64,000 nucleotides of DNA from a virus, in IMG/VR virus record IMGVR_UViG_3300041964_000072, positions 68,739-132,738 of that record. The stretch is one strand, 5' to 3'. The notes beneath the pieces were generated by a model that saw nothing but the letters and a program-made list of their open reading frames with translations, was not told the origin of the DNA and ran no database searches. This document shows, one piece after another, positions 1,134 to 64,000 of this stretch (positions are counted from its first letter, which is position 1; each line of letters starts with the position of its first letter). The position numbers and the translations under genes are program-made.

Positions 1134-1802
1134 ATGTCCAGCAAAAGAAAACTCACTGGAAGTATTGCCACACCTGATCATGCTTGCCAAAAAGAAATGG
1201 ATCAAGCATTGCTAGAGGAAGGAAATCGTTACTTGAAACTCCTTCCCAGTAGCGTCTACAAGGCGTTTCCCCATGAGCAGCTAGTCATTTGGTGCAATCG
1301 TCACCAACGCTATGGAATCGTCACCACAGAGCTAGTGGACTGGCTCAGGGAGCAGATAGGTGACAGGTCAGTGATAGAAATAGCAGCCGGAAAAGGTGAC
1401 TTATCACATCACCTGAATATACATCCTACCGATGGCTATTCACAGACCACTGAATACGTTAAGGACTGCTACGAATCCTGTGGTCATATCCCCCTAATAC
1501 CTAACCCAGAGGTAGAGCGGCTAGAAGCTGTTCAGGCGATCAAGAAGTACAAGCCCAAGGTAGTGATTGCGAGTTGGCTCACTCAAAGGTATCTATCCGA
1601 TCCACGAACAAATTACTACTACGGAGTTGATGAAACTCAAGTCCGGATATTGAGCATGAAATACATTCACATTGGAAATACAAATGTTCATGGAGGTAAG
1701 ACAGTACTCAGGAAACCTCACAAAAAATACGTGTTTCCTTGGTTGGTCAGTCGAGCAGCAAATCAATCTCAAAACGCAATCTGGGTCTTTTCTAAGATAT
1801 GA
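1134..1802 (+). CDS. Class I SAM-dependent methyltransferase-like protein
   Basis: Motif I-like VIEIAAGKGDL; ATG at 1134 lies within the called ORF. Confidence 0.5.
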   Translation: MSSKRKLTGSIATPDHACQKEMDQALLEEGNRYLKLLPSSVYKAFPHEQLVIWCNRHQRYGIVTTELVDWLREQIGDRSVIEIAAGKGDLSHHLNIHPTDGYSQTTEYVKDCYESCGHIPLIPNPEVERLEAVQAIKKYKPKVVIASWLTQRYLSDPRTNYYYGVDETQVRILSMKYIHIGNTNVHGGKTVLRKPHKKYVFPWLVSRAANQSQNAIWVFSKI

Positions 1803-57014: not shown

Positions 57015-58167
57015 ATATGCTTGATTTGACGACTCAGTTTAATCTGGTGTCTTCAGAGAAAATGTTTGACAAGCTAGCGCCTAAAATCTCTCCGGAACAA
57101 TTGCAGTTTACGATAAAAAATCTCATCCGGGAAAAGGCAATCCAAAGAGCATACATGCTGAGTACGATGAGAGAGGTTCAGGAGATGGGAATCTATATGG
57201 CTGATCTCGAATACAGAGAGCGATGTCTCAAAGAAACCATTCGAGAAATGGCAGAGTACAACGGCAAGTTAATCGAAATATTGAGGAAGATAGATGAGAA
57301 CCTTGCAAGACCTAACGGACTCTGAGAAGAAAGATAAGCTGCTTCTAGAGTATCGCCGCTCTAGGGAAGATCAGTCCTTAAAGCTATGGGTGTCTCCTCC
57401 CAATTCAATGCAGTGGCAGCGCTTTGATCAGTCGAGCTACCACCCTATAGCAAAGCAATGGGAAAAGTTCCGCTTTCATAAAAACATGCCGGATGAATCC
57501 GGTTATTTGCTTGTAAGTTATTTCAGAGGCAGTAACATTCCCTATGAAATGCTTAGACTGGTAGAAACTCAGACAATACCATTTGCTGTAGCATCACATG
57601 GAAGTTCCAACATTTGATAGATTAATTGAGGAAATTAGGGACAAGTCTTATACCTCTCCCACTGAGGCATCTCTTGCCCTGGTGCCCTTCCTCGGTACAG
57701 TCGTCATTCCAACCTATGCGATCGTGGATTTGGGGGGTGAACCTCCCGACTGTGATATCAAACCAATCGCTAATTTGGTTTCCTTTCAGGAAGGAGCTGA
57801 AACCCGCTGGAAGTGGCAGATAGTTTGAGCGTTAAGCCCTGGTGTTTGAGTCCGGGGCTAGCCAATTAATTATCATGTCTGACGGATACGATGCAGCAGT
57901 ACAAGCCTTGCAATCAGCCCTTGAAAATCAAGCTCATTATGCAGAACTGGACGAAGCATATAATCGACTGTCCCAGTTTGCAAGGGAACCTGATTCTAGC
58001 GTTGACCAACTACTTTATCGCGCTAGTTGTCGGCTAAAACTGAACCGACCAGCAACGGATAATGAGATAGCAGTTTGCAAGGAAGTGCTGGGGCGATACG
58101 ATTCAGCGTTCAGGCGCTTAGCGGAATAAATCAATACATCGCATACATCCCCGCTAACACATGAGTT

Positions 58168-58665
58168 ATGAACGCAACAACAGTACTGAAAGAAGTTCAA
58201 GGTAACTTACTGAATGTAAGTAAGGGTGTAATTTGTCAGCAGGTCAACTTGCAAGGGGTCATGGGCAAAGGGTTAGCCCTAGACATCCGGACTGCATATC
58301 CTGTCGTTTACCGACGCTACAAGGCAGCGCTTAAAAAAGGCTTGAGCCTGGGCGATGTCGTGATGGTTCCTATCACTAATGAGTTGTGGGTAGCCAATAT
58401 CGTAGGACAAGAAAAAATCAAAGGATTCGGAAAACCACAGTGTCAGACAGATTACGGGGCAGTGCGATTGGGGCTTGAATACATTCGCTTGTGGCAGGAG
58501 TTTACAGAGTCAGAAATTTATATCCCTTATGGCATGGGCTGTCGCCTTGGAGGAGGTCAATGGGAAATTGTATCCAAAATAATTGAAGAGGAATTGCCCA
58601 ATGCAATCATCGTGAAGTATGAACCCTCAAATAAAGAACCTAATGGAGAAGCGGCTGAGATTTGA
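58168..58665 (+). CDS. Macro domain protein
   Basis: CQQVN..GVMGKGLALDI...YP and IPYGMGCRLGGG.W. Confidence 0.88.
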   Translation: MNATTVLKEVQGNLLNVSKGVICQQVNLQGVMGKGLALDIRTAYPVVYRRYKAALKKGLSLGDVVMVPITNELWVANIVGQEKIKGFGKPQCQTDYGAVRLGLEYIRLWQEFTESEIYIPYGMGCRLGGGQWEIVSKIIEEELPNAIIVKYEPSNKEPNGEAAEI

Positions 58666-59133
58666 TGTAGTAGACAAGTCTCCTAGACCGGGATGCATTG
58701 AATCAGGAAAGTACCCTTCTTGGCAGTGCTGTGAATTCCATCGAGAGCTGTCAAAATCCTACGACCAAATGAGGGACAGAGCGCTTAAATTGACGTTTGA
58801 AAAATTTCCAGACGCAAAACAAGACATGCAAGCTCCCTTCCTGGTTTGGATAAAAAGAGAGTTGATGTCCGTTATGTCAACCCGCTGGTGGTTGTTGATG
58901 GCATACACCTTTTGTAGTGATGAAGAAAGTTGTAACGATCCATAGCTATGGTCGTTTTGTGGGATACGGCACTATTATTCGGGATCAAGTTCCATCTGGC
59001 ATTGATAGTTTGTCATGCTATGAAGTTGCTGTGGATTCGTTGCTGTGTCCTGCTCTTTTTTATAAGAAGCCTGAACTCCGAACAGGCAAGCATTTCAATG
59101 TAGGCAACAAGGCATTTTGGATGTTAATGAATC

Positions 59134-59916
59134 ATGGAAAAGCCTTATTTCCACGAATTGAATGATGAAGAAAGAAATGCTGTCTACGGTACTGTTGCAT
59201 CTAAAGTTGTGCAGGATTATCGTCAACCTGACTGGTGTACCTATCCAGAAGCGCTGGGGGGACACCTGGGCTGCTGGTCACTGGTGAGCGGCTTAGTTAC
59301 GTCAGAGGAATTTTGTCGAGGATGCGAATTGCATAAAGATCATCCAGAAAATCCAAAAAATAAACCACAAACAAGGAATGAATCAATGACAACTAATACA
59401 AACGAATCAGTGTTGATTGAAACCCCTCATGTAAAGCTAAAGCGCACTCCCAGAGGATTTGATTATTTGGAGAGACGTGGAAAGGATTCGGTAGCAGTAT
59501 TTCTTGCCAGGTTTGCGGAAAACGGAGAGGAAGAAGTACTAATCCGATATCAACCTTTGTGTGTAGATAATACAGAAGTAGATGGTCAACAAACACTTTT
59601 TCCCTGCCCTATCACTGGTGGGATGGAAGCTGATGAAACTCCTCTTGAATGTGCCTTAAGGGAAGTGGAGGAGGAAGCGGGATACAAATTAGATAATTTA
59701 ATCTCGCTCACTTCTTATATTGTAGGAACCCAAACCAATGAGGTCTGCCATCTTTTCTGGGGCGATGTGACCGACATTGAGCCTATTGAAGCCGCTCAAG
59801 ACGGAAGTTATTTTGAAAGCGTTAGCCGCAATGAGTGGAAGCCTTTTGAATTTCTTCTGGAGTGTGAGTATGTGGCTTGCAAACTAGCACTGTTTCTAAT
59901 CAATGATTTGGAGTAA
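59134..59916 (+). CDS. Nudix hydrolase with N-terminal Cys-containing extension
   Basis: Nudix box GGMEADETPLECALREVEEEAG. Confidence 0.85.
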   Translation: MEKPYFHELNDEERNAVYGTVASKVVQDYRQPDWCTYPEALGGHLGCWSLVSGLVTSEEFCRGCELHKDHPENPKNKPQTRNESMTTNTNESVLIETPHVKLKRTPRGFDYLERRGKDSVAVFLARFAENGEEEVLIRYQPLCVDNTEVDGQQTLFPCPITGGMEADETPLECALREVEEEAGYKLDNLISLTSYIVGTQTNEVCHLFWGDVTDIEPIEAAQDGSYFESVSRNEWKPFEFLLECEYVACKLALFLINDLE

Positions 59917-60169
59917 GATACTGCTTCTATAGTCTTGAAACTCAGTATTCACATTGGCGATGTACTTGATAGTGAGGAATACGATGACGATATCGAAGAC
60001 GATGACTACGAGAAAGAGGGGTCTGAATGTGGTGCCGTTTGGGATTATCCAGGCTCTCCTTACTCAAGTGAGGATGAGGGCATTTAATAGCATCTAAATA
60101 CTCTTGATCTGCAAGTAATCCATGTGGATTAACAGGCACCTAGATCCTTTCTAGGTGCCTACTTAATTT

Positions 60170-60925
60170 TCAAACCAACGCTTTCTTGACATTATTTCCA
60201 GATTCAAAGCAAGCAATCCGACAGTCTTTAAACCCATGTAAATTATTGGCTCTTATTTTTGCTCGTGCCAATACTTCCGCTAAGTTCGTAGCAGCAGCTT
60301 CTATGTCATCAAAGGAATCTCTGAGATTCGCTTTATCAGGTAGACCCCGATTTACCTTAATTTGTTTTGCATCTCCTCCTAACAGTGGCTTGTAAATTTC
60401 GTTGGTACACGCTCCGTACTGCCAGGGTATATTGATTCCCCTGATCTTGAGTTCCTTCGTTAGGTGGTTGCGTCCATCAATGCCTTTCAGTCGAACACTA
60501 ATCCACTCATCAGATTTTCCCTGCCTCCTCCATTTGGCAATAGCCCTGTCCTCGGAGCGGGTAATACCTAACTCTGGATCATTGTCTTCCTCAATACGCT
60601 CCAGCAAAGCACCTAAAGCCCATGAGTGAAATTCAGGACTAAGGTACTCAGCGTATGCGATCGCTAGTTTTGGAATGCCGTATGTTCCGCCGCCTTTGCC
60701 TTTGCGAGTTTCGTAAATACAACTGGGGGCTGTATTAAGTTCCGCCGCTAAAACTCTCAGTAACGGTTGAACATTGTCATTATTTAGCCAATCATTCACC
60801 CGCTTAGTTTTAGGACTACCTTGCGCTCTCCACATATCTGTTAATCTTACAAACCCATCTCCTAATCGAATGTTTATAGGGGTTTCATTATATTCAATTT
60901 TCTTGTATTTAGTTACTTGTCCCAT
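60170..60925 (-). CDS. KilA-N domain protein
   Basis: VRLTDMWRA...NDWL...GGGTY....AIAYAEYLSPEFH. Confidence 0.85.
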   Translation of the reverse strand: MGQVTKYKKIEYNETPINIRLGDGFVRLTDMWRAQGSPKTKRVNDWLNNDNVQPLLRVLAAELNTAPSCIYETRKGKGGGTYGIPKLAIAYAEYLSPEFHSWALGALLERIEEDNDPELGITRSEDRAIAKWRRQGKSDEWISVRLKGIDGRNHLTKELKIRGINIPWQYGACTNEIYKPLLGGDAKQIKVNRGLPDKANLRDSFDDIEAAATNLAEVLARAKIRANNLHGFKDCRIACFESGNNVKKALV

Positions 60926-61035
60926 TGTGCCGATGAAGATAATAAATGGTGAAGTATTATCTGAATATATAAGCCATTTTCTTCTATGATATCAAAACCA
61001 AATTCCGTAAACTATAAAAAGAGAATCTGTAAAAA

Positions 61036-61266
61036 ATGAATCCTATCCATTTTTGCTATTGGCTACAAGGATACTTTGAAGTGTCTACCGAAACGGCACT
61101 GACCCATGATCAGATGGAGGTGATTAAAAAGCACCTGCGGATGGTATTCTATCAGCACATTGACCCTACCTCTCCTGAAGAAAAACAGGAAGGATTGAGC
61201 CAAATTCATAACCCAAGCAATTCCTTGCAAAATATCTCCAATCCTTATGACGGCACTCGCTGCTAG
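61036..61266 (+). CDS. Small hypothetical phage protein
   Basis: FCYWLQGYFE...Q..VIK.HL. Confidence 0.6.
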   Translation: MNPIHFCYWLQGYFEVSTETALTHDQMEVIKKHLRMVFYQHIDPTSPEEKQEGLSQIHNPSNSLQNISNPYDGTRC

Positions 61267-61298
61267 TTAGAATGGTAGAAAGTTAGCATCAATGCGAC

Positions 61299-61712
61299 AT
61301 GGAACATAACATCACGGTTATATTTAATGTTTGCAGAAATGTATCTTTCTACAATGTCGCCTCTACGGAAGGGCATATCGTTGGTGGATTGTTTGTAATT
61401 CCATTTGACGTAGATAATAGTTCTGGTGCTTTTCCTGGACAATCTTTTGTTGAGATTTGCGCTATGAATATCAACAAGCCCTTCCGTCGCAGAGGCTACG
61501 CAACGAGGTTAATGCAGTCCGTAATTAAGGACTTTGCATGGCAGTGGATTTGTCTTCAGGTAGAACAAAATCCTTCACCGGGAAACATGACCACGGAAGA
61601 ATTATTCCGCTGGTATGAAAAGTTGGGATTCGTTGAAAATTCTCCTTATCATGAGGGAGTGGGGTGGATGCATAAAGCTCCCTCATGTAGTCGCAAATTC
61701 ATAACTGAGTGA
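61299..61712 (+). CDS. GNAT acetyltransferase
   Basis: INKPFRRRGYATRLM...WYEKLGF. Confidence 0.85.
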   Translation: MEHNITVIFNVCRNVSFYNVASTEGHIVGGLFVIPFDVDNSSGAFPGQSFVEICAMNINKPFRRRGYATRLMQSVIKDFAWQWICLQVEQNPSPGNMTTEELFRWYEKLGFVENSPYHEGVGWMHKAPSCSRKFITE

Positions 61713-62180
61713 GCGAGTAGTGGCATCATTGACTATGCCTTTATCTATTACTTGATAGATATAAATTTTGGTGTTGATTACCGAGTGTCAACGAGGGCAT
61801 GTTCATGCCATTACTGTGTCTATGTATGTGCAATATTAGCTTAGGCTAGTAAAGCAAGTAGAGGTATCTTGATAATACCTTTGTCTATTACAGGCATAAA
61901 TCCTTTGTCAATCGGTTCCGTCCTTATCCACCACGTATACGCGAAATCAGTATTTCTGATCAAGCGAGTAGAGGTGTTATTGAATGCACCTTTGTCTTTA
62001 TAAAGAAGGCATAAACAAGAGTATTCAAAAAGCTCATGTCTTGTAATTCAATTGGGAACCCTTCTATGTATGCGCGAATTGGCTTCCAATAAGCGAGTAG
62101 CGGCATTCTTGATTATGCCTTTGTCAATTAAAAAATTGGCATAAAGTACTTAGAAATCAAATAAGCAATTCCTTTTTTGT
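61683..62180 (+). repeat. Tandem array of four TnpB omega-RNA-like scaffold+guide units
   Basis: Conserved GTA..YGC-hairpin-GCRAGTAG-hairpin(TTGA loop)-hairpin-...TCAA. Scaffolds span 61683-61791, 61820-61911, 61931-62028 and 62064-62160, and share the architecture of the tnpB 3' end. Confidence 0.85.
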
Positions 62181-62249
62181 ACCTAAGACAATCAATTTGT
62201 CAGTATAGACAATACATCTATATAACGAGGACAACATTCATGATTACAC

Positions 62250-63503
62250 ATGCCCAGTTACGGCTGTCAACAAATCCTTATTCATCCCGATAAAGACCTC
62301 AAAGCAATCCTCGAATTTATCTGTGAGCAATCCAAGAAAATTGCAAACCAAGGCATTTATTACGCTCGACAAATTTATTTTAAAACAGGTAGGGTTATCC
62401 AGAAATATGAACTAGAAAAAGTACTAAAACACACCTTAACCTATCAATCACTTTACTCTGCGGTGGCACAACAAACGCTTCAGGCAGTAGGAGAAGCCTT
62501 CAAGAGCTTCATTGGACTTTTAAGAGGAATCAAGAAAGGCACTGTAACTCAAAAACCAGAAATTCCAAAATACATCAAGAAAGAGTTTCATCTGGTAGCC
62601 TACCCCAAACAGACCTTGAAATTACAGGATAATCACATAATATTTGGCTTAGGAAAAAAGGTTAAGGCTTGGTTTGGGATCGACCACTTCAAGATCCCAA
62701 TGCCCAGTAACCTAAATTTTGACCAAATCCGTGAAATCCAATTCATTCCACGTAACGGCTGTTTCTACGCCAGTTTTAGCTACAAGACCCCTACAACCGA
62801 GAAAGCGGACGTAGACCCTCAGCGAGTACTAGGTATTGACCACGGACTCGACAACTGGTTGACGTGTGTAAGTAATGTCGATACCAGTTTTATTGTCGAT
62901 GGTCGTCACCTGAAGTCATTAAATCAGTGGTACAACAAACGAACCTCTGAGCTGAAAACTGGTCAGCCTAAAGGCTTCCGGTCTAAGCAGTTAGATCGAA
63001 TTACCGAAAAGCGCAATCGGCAAGCCAGGGATGCAGTAAATAAAGCCGCACGGATGGTACTCAATCACTGCATAGAACACCGTATCGGAACTGTGGTCTT
63101 TGGCTGGAATAAAGAGCAGAAACAAGGCATTAATATAGGGAAACGAAACAACCAAAATTTTGTGCAAATTCCCACAGGTAAACTAAAGGATCGTATTTCC
63201 CATCTATGTGAGCAGTATGGGATTCGATTCATAGAAACCGAAGAATCCTACACGTCTAGGGCATCATTTCTCGATGACGATTTTATTCCACAATGGGAAA
63301 AGAAACCGGAAGGTTGGAAACCGTCAGGAAATCGCAAGAAGCGAGGACTTTATATTACAAAGGAAGGAATAAAAATCAACGCTGACTGCAATGGTGCGGG
63401 GAACATCCTTCGCAAGGTAGCAACAACGGAAGGGCTAGACCTTTCCGGAGTTAGTAGGGGTGCCTTGACAACACCTTCAAGAGTCCGTATCTGGGCTGCT
63501 TGA
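62250..63503 (+). CDS. tnpB: TnpB (IS200/IS605 RNA-guided endonuclease) with intact RuvC
   Basis: RuvC I LGIDHG, RuvC II TEESYTS, RuvC III NADCNGA; cyanobacterial-type sequence without the Zn-finger cysteines. Confidence 0.95.
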   Translation: MPSYGCQQILIHPDKDLKAILEFICEQSKKIANQGIYYARQIYFKTGRVIQKYELEKVLKHTLTYQSLYSAVAQQTLQAVGEAFKSFIGLLRGIKKGTVTQKPEIPKYIKKEFHLVAYPKQTLKLQDNHIIFGLGKKVKAWFGIDHFKIPMPSNLNFDQIREIQFIPRNGCFYASFSYKTPTTEKADVDPQRVLGIDHGLDNWLTCVSNVDTSFIVDGRHLKSLNQWYNKRTSELKTGQPKGFRSKQLDRITEKRNRQARDAVNKAARMVLNHCIEHRIGTVVFGWNKEQKQGINIGKRNNQNFVQIPTGKLKDRISHLCEQYGIRFIETEESYTSRASFLDDDFIPQWEKKPEGWKPSGNRKKRGLYITKEGIKINADCNGAGNILRKVATTEGLDLSGVSRGALTTPSRVRIWAA

Positions 63504-63544
63504 TAATCTCGCTGAGTATGTCAACAGGGGTAACATTCAATACA
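63414..63544 (+). ncRNA. Native omega-RNA overlapping the tnpB 3' end plus flanking guide
   Basis: Ends GAGTATGTCAA at 63524; loop TTGACA (63465-63470) pairs with TGTCAA (63519-63524). Confidence 0.8.
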
Positions 63545-63565
63545 CGCAAACAACAGGAGTTTACA

Positions 63566-63754
63566 ATGCGCCAAATCATCGAAATTTTCAGCAATGAAGT
63601 ACTATTCCGGTACATCCCATTCCTACGAGACAATGACACAGCCATAAGAATAATCGTTGTGTTAACTTTCTTTGGCTTGATATCCCTACCACTAATTGTA
63701 TTTACAGTCAAAGACTACCTAGAATATCGTCCGGAAAAATCAGACAAAAGATGA
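63566..63754 (+). CDS. Small membrane protein
   Basis: CAGGAG RBS and one long hydrophobic segment. Confidence 0.5.
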   Translation: MRQIIEIFSNEVLFRYIPFLRDNDTAIRIIVVLTFFGLISLPLIVFTVKDYLEYRPEKSDKR

Positions 63755-63996
63755 ATTCTCCGGAAATTTACACCAACAGGTAATGGTGGTAGAGTTTGTA
63801 ACTGTCGGTTTACACTTGCCACCATTTTCTTTTCTCTATCAAATCCTTTTTTGATACCCTTTTTGTAATTATTCCGCTTAACAAGATTTCTGTTTGTTGC
63901 GAGTATTCCTTTCCGGACACCTGTACCCATTGCTTCAAGTCGAGGCATACGTTTGTCTTTTGATACCCGCTTGGCAACCCTATACCCTTTTTTCAC
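63715..63996 (-). CDS. Highly basic protein (possibly 5'-truncated by window edge)
   Basis: Lys/Arg-rich ORF running to the window edge. Confidence 0.45.
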   Translation of the reverse strand: MKKGYRVAKRVSKDKRMPRLEAMGTGVRKGILATNRNLVKRNNYKKGIKKGFDREKKMVASVNRQLQTLPPLPVGVNFRRIHLLSDFSGRYSR

Positions 63997-64000
63997 GGGT

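Follow-up and report, generated by a model that had tools for sequence, protein, structure and literature searches.

Known systems and the phage locus

The omega-RNA (also called reRNA) of the ISDra2 TnpB system (PDB 8h1j, 8exa) contains, as seen by cryo-electron microscopy, a pseudoknot formed overall by nucleotides -6 to -2 with -102 to -106, within which -5U to -3C pair with -103A to -105G and are flanked by two non-canonical pairs (PMC10097598). Stem 1, on which the knot stacks, encloses the -102 to -106 strand between its arms (-116 to -111 and -91 to -86; PMC10097598). A similar arrangement is found in a cyanophage-like virus. Five related RNA-like units (u1 to u5), all on the same strand, are located in a 64,000-nucleotide stretch of IMG/VR virus record IMGVR_UViG_3300041964_000072 (positions 68,739 to 132,738 of the record; hereafter the window), and in each of them, as in ISDra2, the loop of the first core stem is complementary to the nucleotides just 5' of the guide. 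Taken as a whole, the evidence is best explained by this TTGAnn/nnTCAA complementarity being the pseudoknot of TnpB omega-RNA scaffolds, which we regard as very probable. A preliminary description of this DNA, made from its letters, had proposed equivalence to the known guide-adjacent pseudoknot, and the topology is indeed that of ISDra2 (PMC10097598).

Both knots are short with non-canonical edges, extending from -6 to -2 in ISDra2 and from -6 or -5 to -1 in the phage units. Unlike ISDra2, the phage scaffold has an additional helix (stem 0) before the knot stem and measures 93–109 nt, as opposed to a 116-nt core, and the phage family has no detectable protein or RNA sequence similarity to ISDra2. 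The units resemble more closely the canonical cyanobacterial omega-RNAs of the IS605 type (about 100 loci), with which they share the succession of a 5' box, stem 0, AGUAG, a stem 1 with UUGA in its loop, stem 2, and a UCAA end. They differ from these RNAs in the absence of a GC-rich stem 3 and of the GAAT that precedes it. A cmscan search of window positions 58000–64000 against Rfam 15 gave 0 matches with E up to 1.

According to the passage of PMC13639567 that cites Jin et al. 2025, the omega-RNA of TranC is split into a trans-activating CRISPR RNA (tracrRNA) and a CRISPR RNA (crRNA). Like TranC and type V CRISPR systems, the phage locus has a TnpB-type effector, candidate guides side by side, and a 3' knot strand beside each of them. 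Unlike those systems, it repeats the whole scaffold for each guide and has no split. A split guide of the TranC type was ruled out, because each unit aligns to the full covariance model described below, from 5' box to UCAA. A CRISPR array was also rejected, as the units are long (93–109 nt) and diverged (about 71–76% identical), Tandem Repeats Finder reports nothing, and the record contains no Cas1. Protein-less derivatives of IS605, known as PATEs, reportedly carry omega-RNAs as well, an observation attributed to Meers et al. in 2023. Units u1–u4 are similar to PATEs in being omega-RNA genes with no adjacent tnpB that could potentially use a TnpB in trans. PATEs keep both transposon ends; u1–u4, by contrast, lack the left end as well as the right-end hairpin and form a head-to-tail cluster.

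Pseudoknot pairing in five units

The complementary segments of the five units are as follows (window coordinates).

u1: TTGAC 61729–61733 with GTCAA 61787–61791, plus strand; 5 bp, sixth position U-U
u2: TTGATA 61869–61874 with TGTCAA 61906–61911, plus strand; 6 bp, one of them U-G
u3: TTGAAT 61980–61985 with ATTCAA 62023–62028, plus strand; 6 bp
u4: TTGATT 62109–62114 with AATCAA 62155–62160, plus strand; 6 bp
u5: TTGACA 63465–63470 with TGTCAA 63519–63524, plus strand; 6 bp

In each unit the 5' strand of the knot sits in the hairpin loop of stem 1, and the 3' strand constitutes the last six bases of the scaffold. Since TTGA and TCAA are constant, variation is confined to knot positions 5 and 6, where 9 of the 10 possible pairs are formed. 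From u1 to u5, position 5 reads C-G, U-G, A-U, U-A, and C-G, while position 6 has no pair in u1 and then A-U, U-A, U-A, and A-U. All ten knot coordinates given in the preliminary description are exact, each unit pairs over 5–6 bp, and its unit size of 92–109 nt agrees with the boundaries derived here (93–109 nt). Its further claim that the changes are compensatory in all five copies holds for u3 and u4, which carry double changes; in u2 only one side has changed, leaving a wobble, and both u1 and u5 carry C-G, the commonest pair.

Covariation among homologous omega-RNAs

The homologue set comprises 27 cyanobacterial genome loci, one viral locus, and 80 metagenome loci, with TnpBs about 44–65% identical to the phage protein. 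The metagenome pattern scan returned at least 599 matches, of which at least 532 encode relatives. The covariance model used here (R1) rests on 13 canonical RNAs located at tnpB 3' ends and excludes u1–u4. The alignment based on R1 comprises 108 RNAs, and knot pairs were counted on 105 distinct aligned RNAs. R1 scores u5 at 112 bits and u1, u2, u3, and u4 at 33.3, 27.9, 24.0, and 15.2 bits, respectively (E-values for u1–u4 are from a 1-kb search). All five matches span model positions 1–138; because R1 finds u1–u4 end to end, these stand-alone units are complete omega-RNA homologues. The pairs at each knot position are distributed across the alignment as listed.

Positions 1 and 2: U-A 100; unpaired 2
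Position 3: G-C 88, A-U 5; unpaired 8
Position 4: A-U 76, G-U 6; unpaired 19
Position 5: C-G 51, U-A 28, G-U 6, G-C 4, A-U 2, U-G 2; unpaired 9
Position 6: A-U 39, U-A 13, U-G 5; unpaired 45

Over the 5-bp core, 92.3% of cells are paired, compared with 28.6–48.3% when the partner is slid by 1–4 columns (102 distinct omega-RNAs, u1–u4 excluded). With the same exclusion, of 136 well-filled columns the predicted partner at -5 is the most informative about loop position 5 (0.99 bits of mutual information; the next column reaches 0.62). On a tree of tnpB coding DNA, a C or U in the loop agrees with a G or A in the partner in 78 of 81 rows. The state of position 5 changes about six times on this tree, five of five independent contrasts are concordant, and the switch from C-G to U-A has taken place in at least five independent lineages. 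Throughout a separate clade, the loop reads UUAAG and the end CUUAA, so that both bases of the third pair, fixed elsewhere, have changed together. Copies cease to be conserved immediately past TCAA, which places the 3' knot strand directly against the guide.

The pairing is thus present in five units and covaries family-wide, and the units are homologous to canonical omega-RNAs. That the pseudoknot is under selection, as the preliminary description had held, is supported by the homologous loci through the paired core, the mutual information, and the concordant contrasts. The knot exists and is under selection, and its kind is already familiar from a solved TnpB structure.

A long omega-RNA subtype also exists among the homologues (L010, L011, L012, L019, L020, L022, L024, L026, and L027), in which about 50 nt are inserted after stem 2. 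Its knot comprises 6–8 bp (UUUUGACU / AGUCAAAA where the flank allows), and about 18 copies are present in one cyanobacterial genome (G053).

Weighing the pseudoknot against other accounts

Several observations weigh against the pseudoknot reading. The statistics from the window itself are weak and at most suggestive: when the 3' ends are permuted among the units, the observed score is attained in 6 of 120 arrangements (p = 0.05), the lowest value attainable because three units share TGTCAA. The sign test on the five tree contrasts likewise stands at its floor for five (p = 0.0625). In u1 alone, the 3' GUCAAC can pair with a local GUUGAU (61771–61776), producing a rival hairpin in the minimum-free-energy fold. 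The sixth pair is not maintained in the family (45 of 102 cells unpaired, with no signal on the tree) and is optional. A clade of about 19 RNAs (L194, L184, L162, L195, L193, L178, and others) has an uncompensated internal U-U at position 4, with U in place of A, which implies that strict Watson-Crick pairing is not needed throughout; positions 5 and 6 of this clade still covary (TTGTCA/TGTCAA, TTGTTA/TATCAA, TTGTCT/AGTCAA). Finally, the type of stem 2 found in u1–u4 (UGUC...GGCA) is seen on none of the roughly 100 tnpB-linked RNAs, which leaves the fit of these units to the TnpB beside them less certain.

The complementarity could in principle reflect DNA-level recognition of a right end by the TnpA transposase rather than RNA structure. 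At the right end of IS608, the TnpA guide is said to be GAAT and the cleavage site TCAA, as Barabas et al. reportedly described in 2008. Canonical relatives of the phage units end in the same order, with GAAT, a GC-rich hairpin (stem 3), and AGTGTCAA, and many carry a Y1 tnpA directly upstream; this is presumably the IS608 right-end layout, and TCAA would therefore be doubly constrained in mobile copies. The IS608 interaction, however, is made at the DNA level and with another partner, and it has been lost at the phage locus. The guide GAAT sits at the foot of stem 3 and not in the loop of stem 1. It is also invariant, whereas loop position 5 covaries with position -5. The phage units have no stem 3, GAAT, left-end hairpins, or tnpA, yet the pairing is kept and compensated. 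With the units lacking stem 3 and GAAT and the record lacking tnpA, retention of TTGA/TCAA with compensation points to a constraint on RNA and not on transposition, and the TnpA explanation is accordingly very improbable. Chance complementarity, picked out by eye in an AT-rich intergenic stretch, has in its favor that the fixed part is only four bases, that the register was open to the reader's choice, and that single-sequence folds of the units are no better than those of shuffled sequences (z -1.9 to +0.7). The register is nevertheless set by the end of the scaffold, the observed arrangement is the best of the 120 permutations, and family-wide tests from which the phage stand-alone units were omitted pick out the same columns. 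Coincidence is therefore scarcely credible, and the pseudoknot remains the explanation we prefer.

The phage TnpB and its surroundings

The record is linear and 132,738 bp long, with a completeness estimate of 65%, and the window is its final 64 kb. The tnpB locus lies less than 500 nt from the record end (window positions 63525–64000 remain beyond it). Among GenBank phages, only Nodularia phages match the window at the DNA level, weakly and over the tnpB region. The record encodes a single TnpB.

62250–63503, plus strand: tnpB, 417 aa; Pfam OrfB_IS605 (1.7e-17) and Cas12f1-like TNB (2.5e-6)

The RuvC residues D197, E331, and D379 of this protein are invariant in an alignment with eleven relatives. 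A search of PDB sequences with the protein or its profile as query found no match. An AlphaFold model (predicted local distance difference test score, pLDDT, 73.9) matches Cas12f structures and ISDra2 TnpB (8h1j) in Foldseek, with E 3e-13 and TM scores of 0.60/0.68. As modeled, the phage protein has the TnpB/Cas12f fold with its catalytic residues intact.

No convincing tnpA was detected across the 132-kb record (best tblastn E 0.016), and the left-end hairpins known from relatives were not found near or upstream of the phage tnpB. The locus thus has neither the two subterminal hairpins nor the TnpA of a mobile IS200/IS605 element. Upstream of the units, an open reading frame for a GNAT acetyltransferase (61299–61712) overlaps the 5' box and stem 0 of u1 with its last ~10 codons (about 30 nt). 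A promoter-like site at 61623–61652 is located about 30 nt upstream of u1, in a scan that performed at chance level; neither promoters nor terminators scored above chance at the locus. A comparison with empty sites yielded nothing, as neither flank is resembled by any GenBank phage, and no relative of the GNAT gene was found in IMG/VR; a related phage, whether carrying or lacking the array, did not come to light. Two phages have only a KilA-N gene in common with the locus, and they have no omega-RNA.

Architecture of the units

Units u1–u4 follow one another head to tail in 540 nt between the GNAT open reading frame and tnpB. They are not at the tnpB 3' end but 90–570 nt upstream of the tnpB start. 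Unit u5 overlaps the 3' end of tnpB (which ends at 63503), the usual site of an omega-RNA. Stem coordinates are from a helix check, and spacers are read from the sequence.

61683–61791, plus strand: u1, stand-alone compact omega-RNA scaffold, 109 nt; R1 match end to end, E 1.4e-7; stem 0 61698–61709, stem 1 61722–61739, stem 2 61742–61761
61792–61818, plus strand: spacer or candidate guide after u1, 27 nt
61819–61911, plus strand: u2, stand-alone omega-RNA scaffold, 93 nt; R1 match E 2.6e-6; stem 0 61834–61851, stem 1 61863–61879, stem 2 61882–61896
61912–61931, plus strand: spacer or candidate guide after u2, 20 nt
61932–62028, plus strand: u3, stand-alone omega-RNA scaffold, 97 nt; R1 match E 2e-5; stem 0 61946–61960, stem 1 61973–61990, stem 2 61993–62011
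62029–62063, plus strand: spacer or candidate guide after u3, 35 nt
62064–62160, plus strand: u4, stand-alone omega-RNA scaffold, 97 nt; R1 match E 0.002, with the 3' part misaligned; stem 0 62079–62089, stem 1 62102–62119, stem 2 62122–62141
62161–62249, plus strand: candidate guide of u4, running into the tnpB upstream region; contains a small hairpin GACAA-TCAAT-TTGTC
~63403–63524, plus strand: u5, canonical omega-RNA at the tnpB 3' end; R1 match 111.9 bits, E 7.6e-23; stem 0 63427–63447, stem 1 63459–63475, stem 2 63478–63502, stem 3 vestigial (3 bp)
63525–63544, plus strand: u5 flank, the guide position of a canonical omega-RNA; homologue conservation stops right after TCAA

When the units are aligned with the tnpB 3' ends of relatives, similarity begins well upstream of the AGCGAGTAG motif, at a 5' box that reads (C)TATGTATGCGCGAA in the phage units and AAAAGTAGCGNCAA in canonical copies. 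This box is followed by stem 0, a single-stranded AGYRAGUAG, stem 1 with UUGAnn in its loop, CCUUU, stem 2, AUAAA, a variable linker, and nnUCAA. The units are only about 71–76% identical, yet every helix is intact in each. Stem 0 differs in sequence in each unit, the arms of stem 1 covary (GGCAT/ATGCC, GGTAT/ATACC, GGTGT/GCACC, GGTG/CACC; 4–5 bp), and stem 2 keeps its base while its distal part varies. All five units are without a full stem 3, the right-end hairpin, of which 3 bp or nothing is left, and without the GAAT before it.

Stem 2 of u5 is of the canonical type; outside the phage, the different type in u1–u4 was found in a single orphan omega-RNA (L230) from a cyanobacterial genome. 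Stems 1 and 2 of this RNA are also the closest relatives of those of u4. This orphan (1463–1589, minus strand, in G053:C59) has no tnpB within 1.4 kb and keeps a GC-rich stem 3. No cognate TnpB for the u1–u4 type of stem 2 was found in genome G053 either. As the orphan shares this stem 2 and yet retains stem 3, stem 3 has probably been lost at least twice, which suggests selection on RNA function together with relaxed selection on mobility.

The spacer after u1 holds a GGCAT-GTTC-ATGCC hairpin with a 4-nt loop and arms identical to those of u1 stem 1. Rather than a guide, it may be what is left of a partial unit.

Guides or relics

The repetition of whole scaffolds with 20–35 nt spacers beside an intact but immobile phage TnpB is the unusual part of this locus. 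One reading, which we advance tentatively and hold to be a real possibility though short of probable, is that four diverged, complete omega-RNA genes together with u5 give a catalytically intact phage TnpB five working guides. The main argument that the units work is the preservation of the knot and of three other helices in every one of them. Alternatively, u1–u4 are decaying right-end relics of repeated insertion, deletion, or duplication, with an inherited complementarity and no guides. Tandem right ends are known in relatives too (viral L002 and metagenome L151), no spacer target was found, the array is known from one record only, and the spacers after u1 and u3 share CATGT at the same offset, a hint that unit and spacer were duplicated jointly. 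Against this, diverged as they are, all four units have all four helices intact, with wholly different stem 0 sequences and double changes in stem 1, stem 2, and the knot. The single-stranded motifs are also kept (GUA of the 5' box, AGYRAGUAG, CCUUU, AUAAA, and UCAA), whereas the parts needed only for transposition are lost. We consider the relic explanation, the main rival, rather unlikely. Some of the remaining probability falls, for example, to u1–u4 being functional for another TnpB.

Searches for spacer targets covered several collections. None was present in the phage's own 132 kb at up to 3 mismatches, none at guide positions in GenBank phages, and 401 cyanobacterial genomes gave matches at chance level only, the best at a guide position being a gapped, chance-level match of the u3 spacer in genome G358. 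IMG/VR contains no exact 20-mers of the u1–u3 spacers. A DNA pattern search of IMG/VR found no second array of this type: a loose pattern gave more than 110 chance matches, a stricter one gave five, none of them genuine, and a stem filter on the pattern matches left one true tnpB-linked RNA (L096). In full-text literature searches on TnpB and related topics, no whole-scaffold omega-RNA array was apparent among the papers listed.

Tandem omega-RNAs occur in two relatives. At viral locus L002 (4134–4417), the omega-RNA at the tnpB 3' end is present as two full-length tandem copies of 142 nt; these differ at a few positions, and the junction lies 3 nt past the first TCAA. In metagenome locus L151 (1856–2201), a canonical omega-RNA is followed by ATG, a second stem 3 with AGTGTCAA, and then a full diverged omega-RNA with no tnpB, so that three right ends fall within 350 nt. 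Judging from these relatives, right-end duplication is a recurrent raw material.

Left-end junctions of relatives (L006, L008, L174, L144, L179, L002, L208, and L213) show similarity beginning just after TTGAC, CTGAC, ATGAC, or TTCAC. From these junctions, the transposon-associated motif (TAM) is probably T(G/C)AC. Stem 1 loops, too, most commonly read TTGAC, one of these junction sequences, and the GTCAA end is complementary to it.

Proposed mechanism and significance

In the proposed mechanism, the stem 1 loop would pair with the last 5–6 nucleotides of the scaffold to form an H-type knot that adjoins the guide on its 5' side. As in ISDra2, this knot would be expected to stack on stem 1, be held by TnpB, and set the point at which the guide exits the scaffold. 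The guide would then pair with DNA adjoining the TAM, and RuvC would cut. We infer that these RNAs are produced, that this TnpB binds them, and that the knot is needed for activity; u1–u4 would presumably supply extra guides to the immobilized phage enzyme.

The guide-adjacent knot is regarded as a core conserved in all TnpB and Cas12 guide RNAs. Natural covariation now confirms it in a large TnpB family of cyanobacteria and phages with neither a solved structure nor an Rfam model, and the general rule is thereby strengthened. A tested alignment and model now exist for this family. The phage locus, where transposition signals have decayed and the knot has been kept, cleanly separates the needs of the RNA from those of the transposase.

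The preliminary description had proposed the units as minimal scaffolds for compact editors. Engineered truncations of the ISDra2 omega-RNA of similar size exist already (PMC13639567). Natural scaffolds of 93–109 nt with no right-end hairpin parallel them and could guide the trimming of related editors, conditional on demonstrated activity.

For the phage itself, no other available evidence speaks as strongly as the preserved knot for the four extra scaffolds being functional guide RNAs. If they are, the locus would represent a multi-guide system whose origin lay in the duplication or capture of whole scaffolds rather than in a tracrRNA/crRNA split, with a probable use against competing phages or host elements. 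It would then constitute a second natural route from a transposon nuclease toward CRISPR-like multiplexing.

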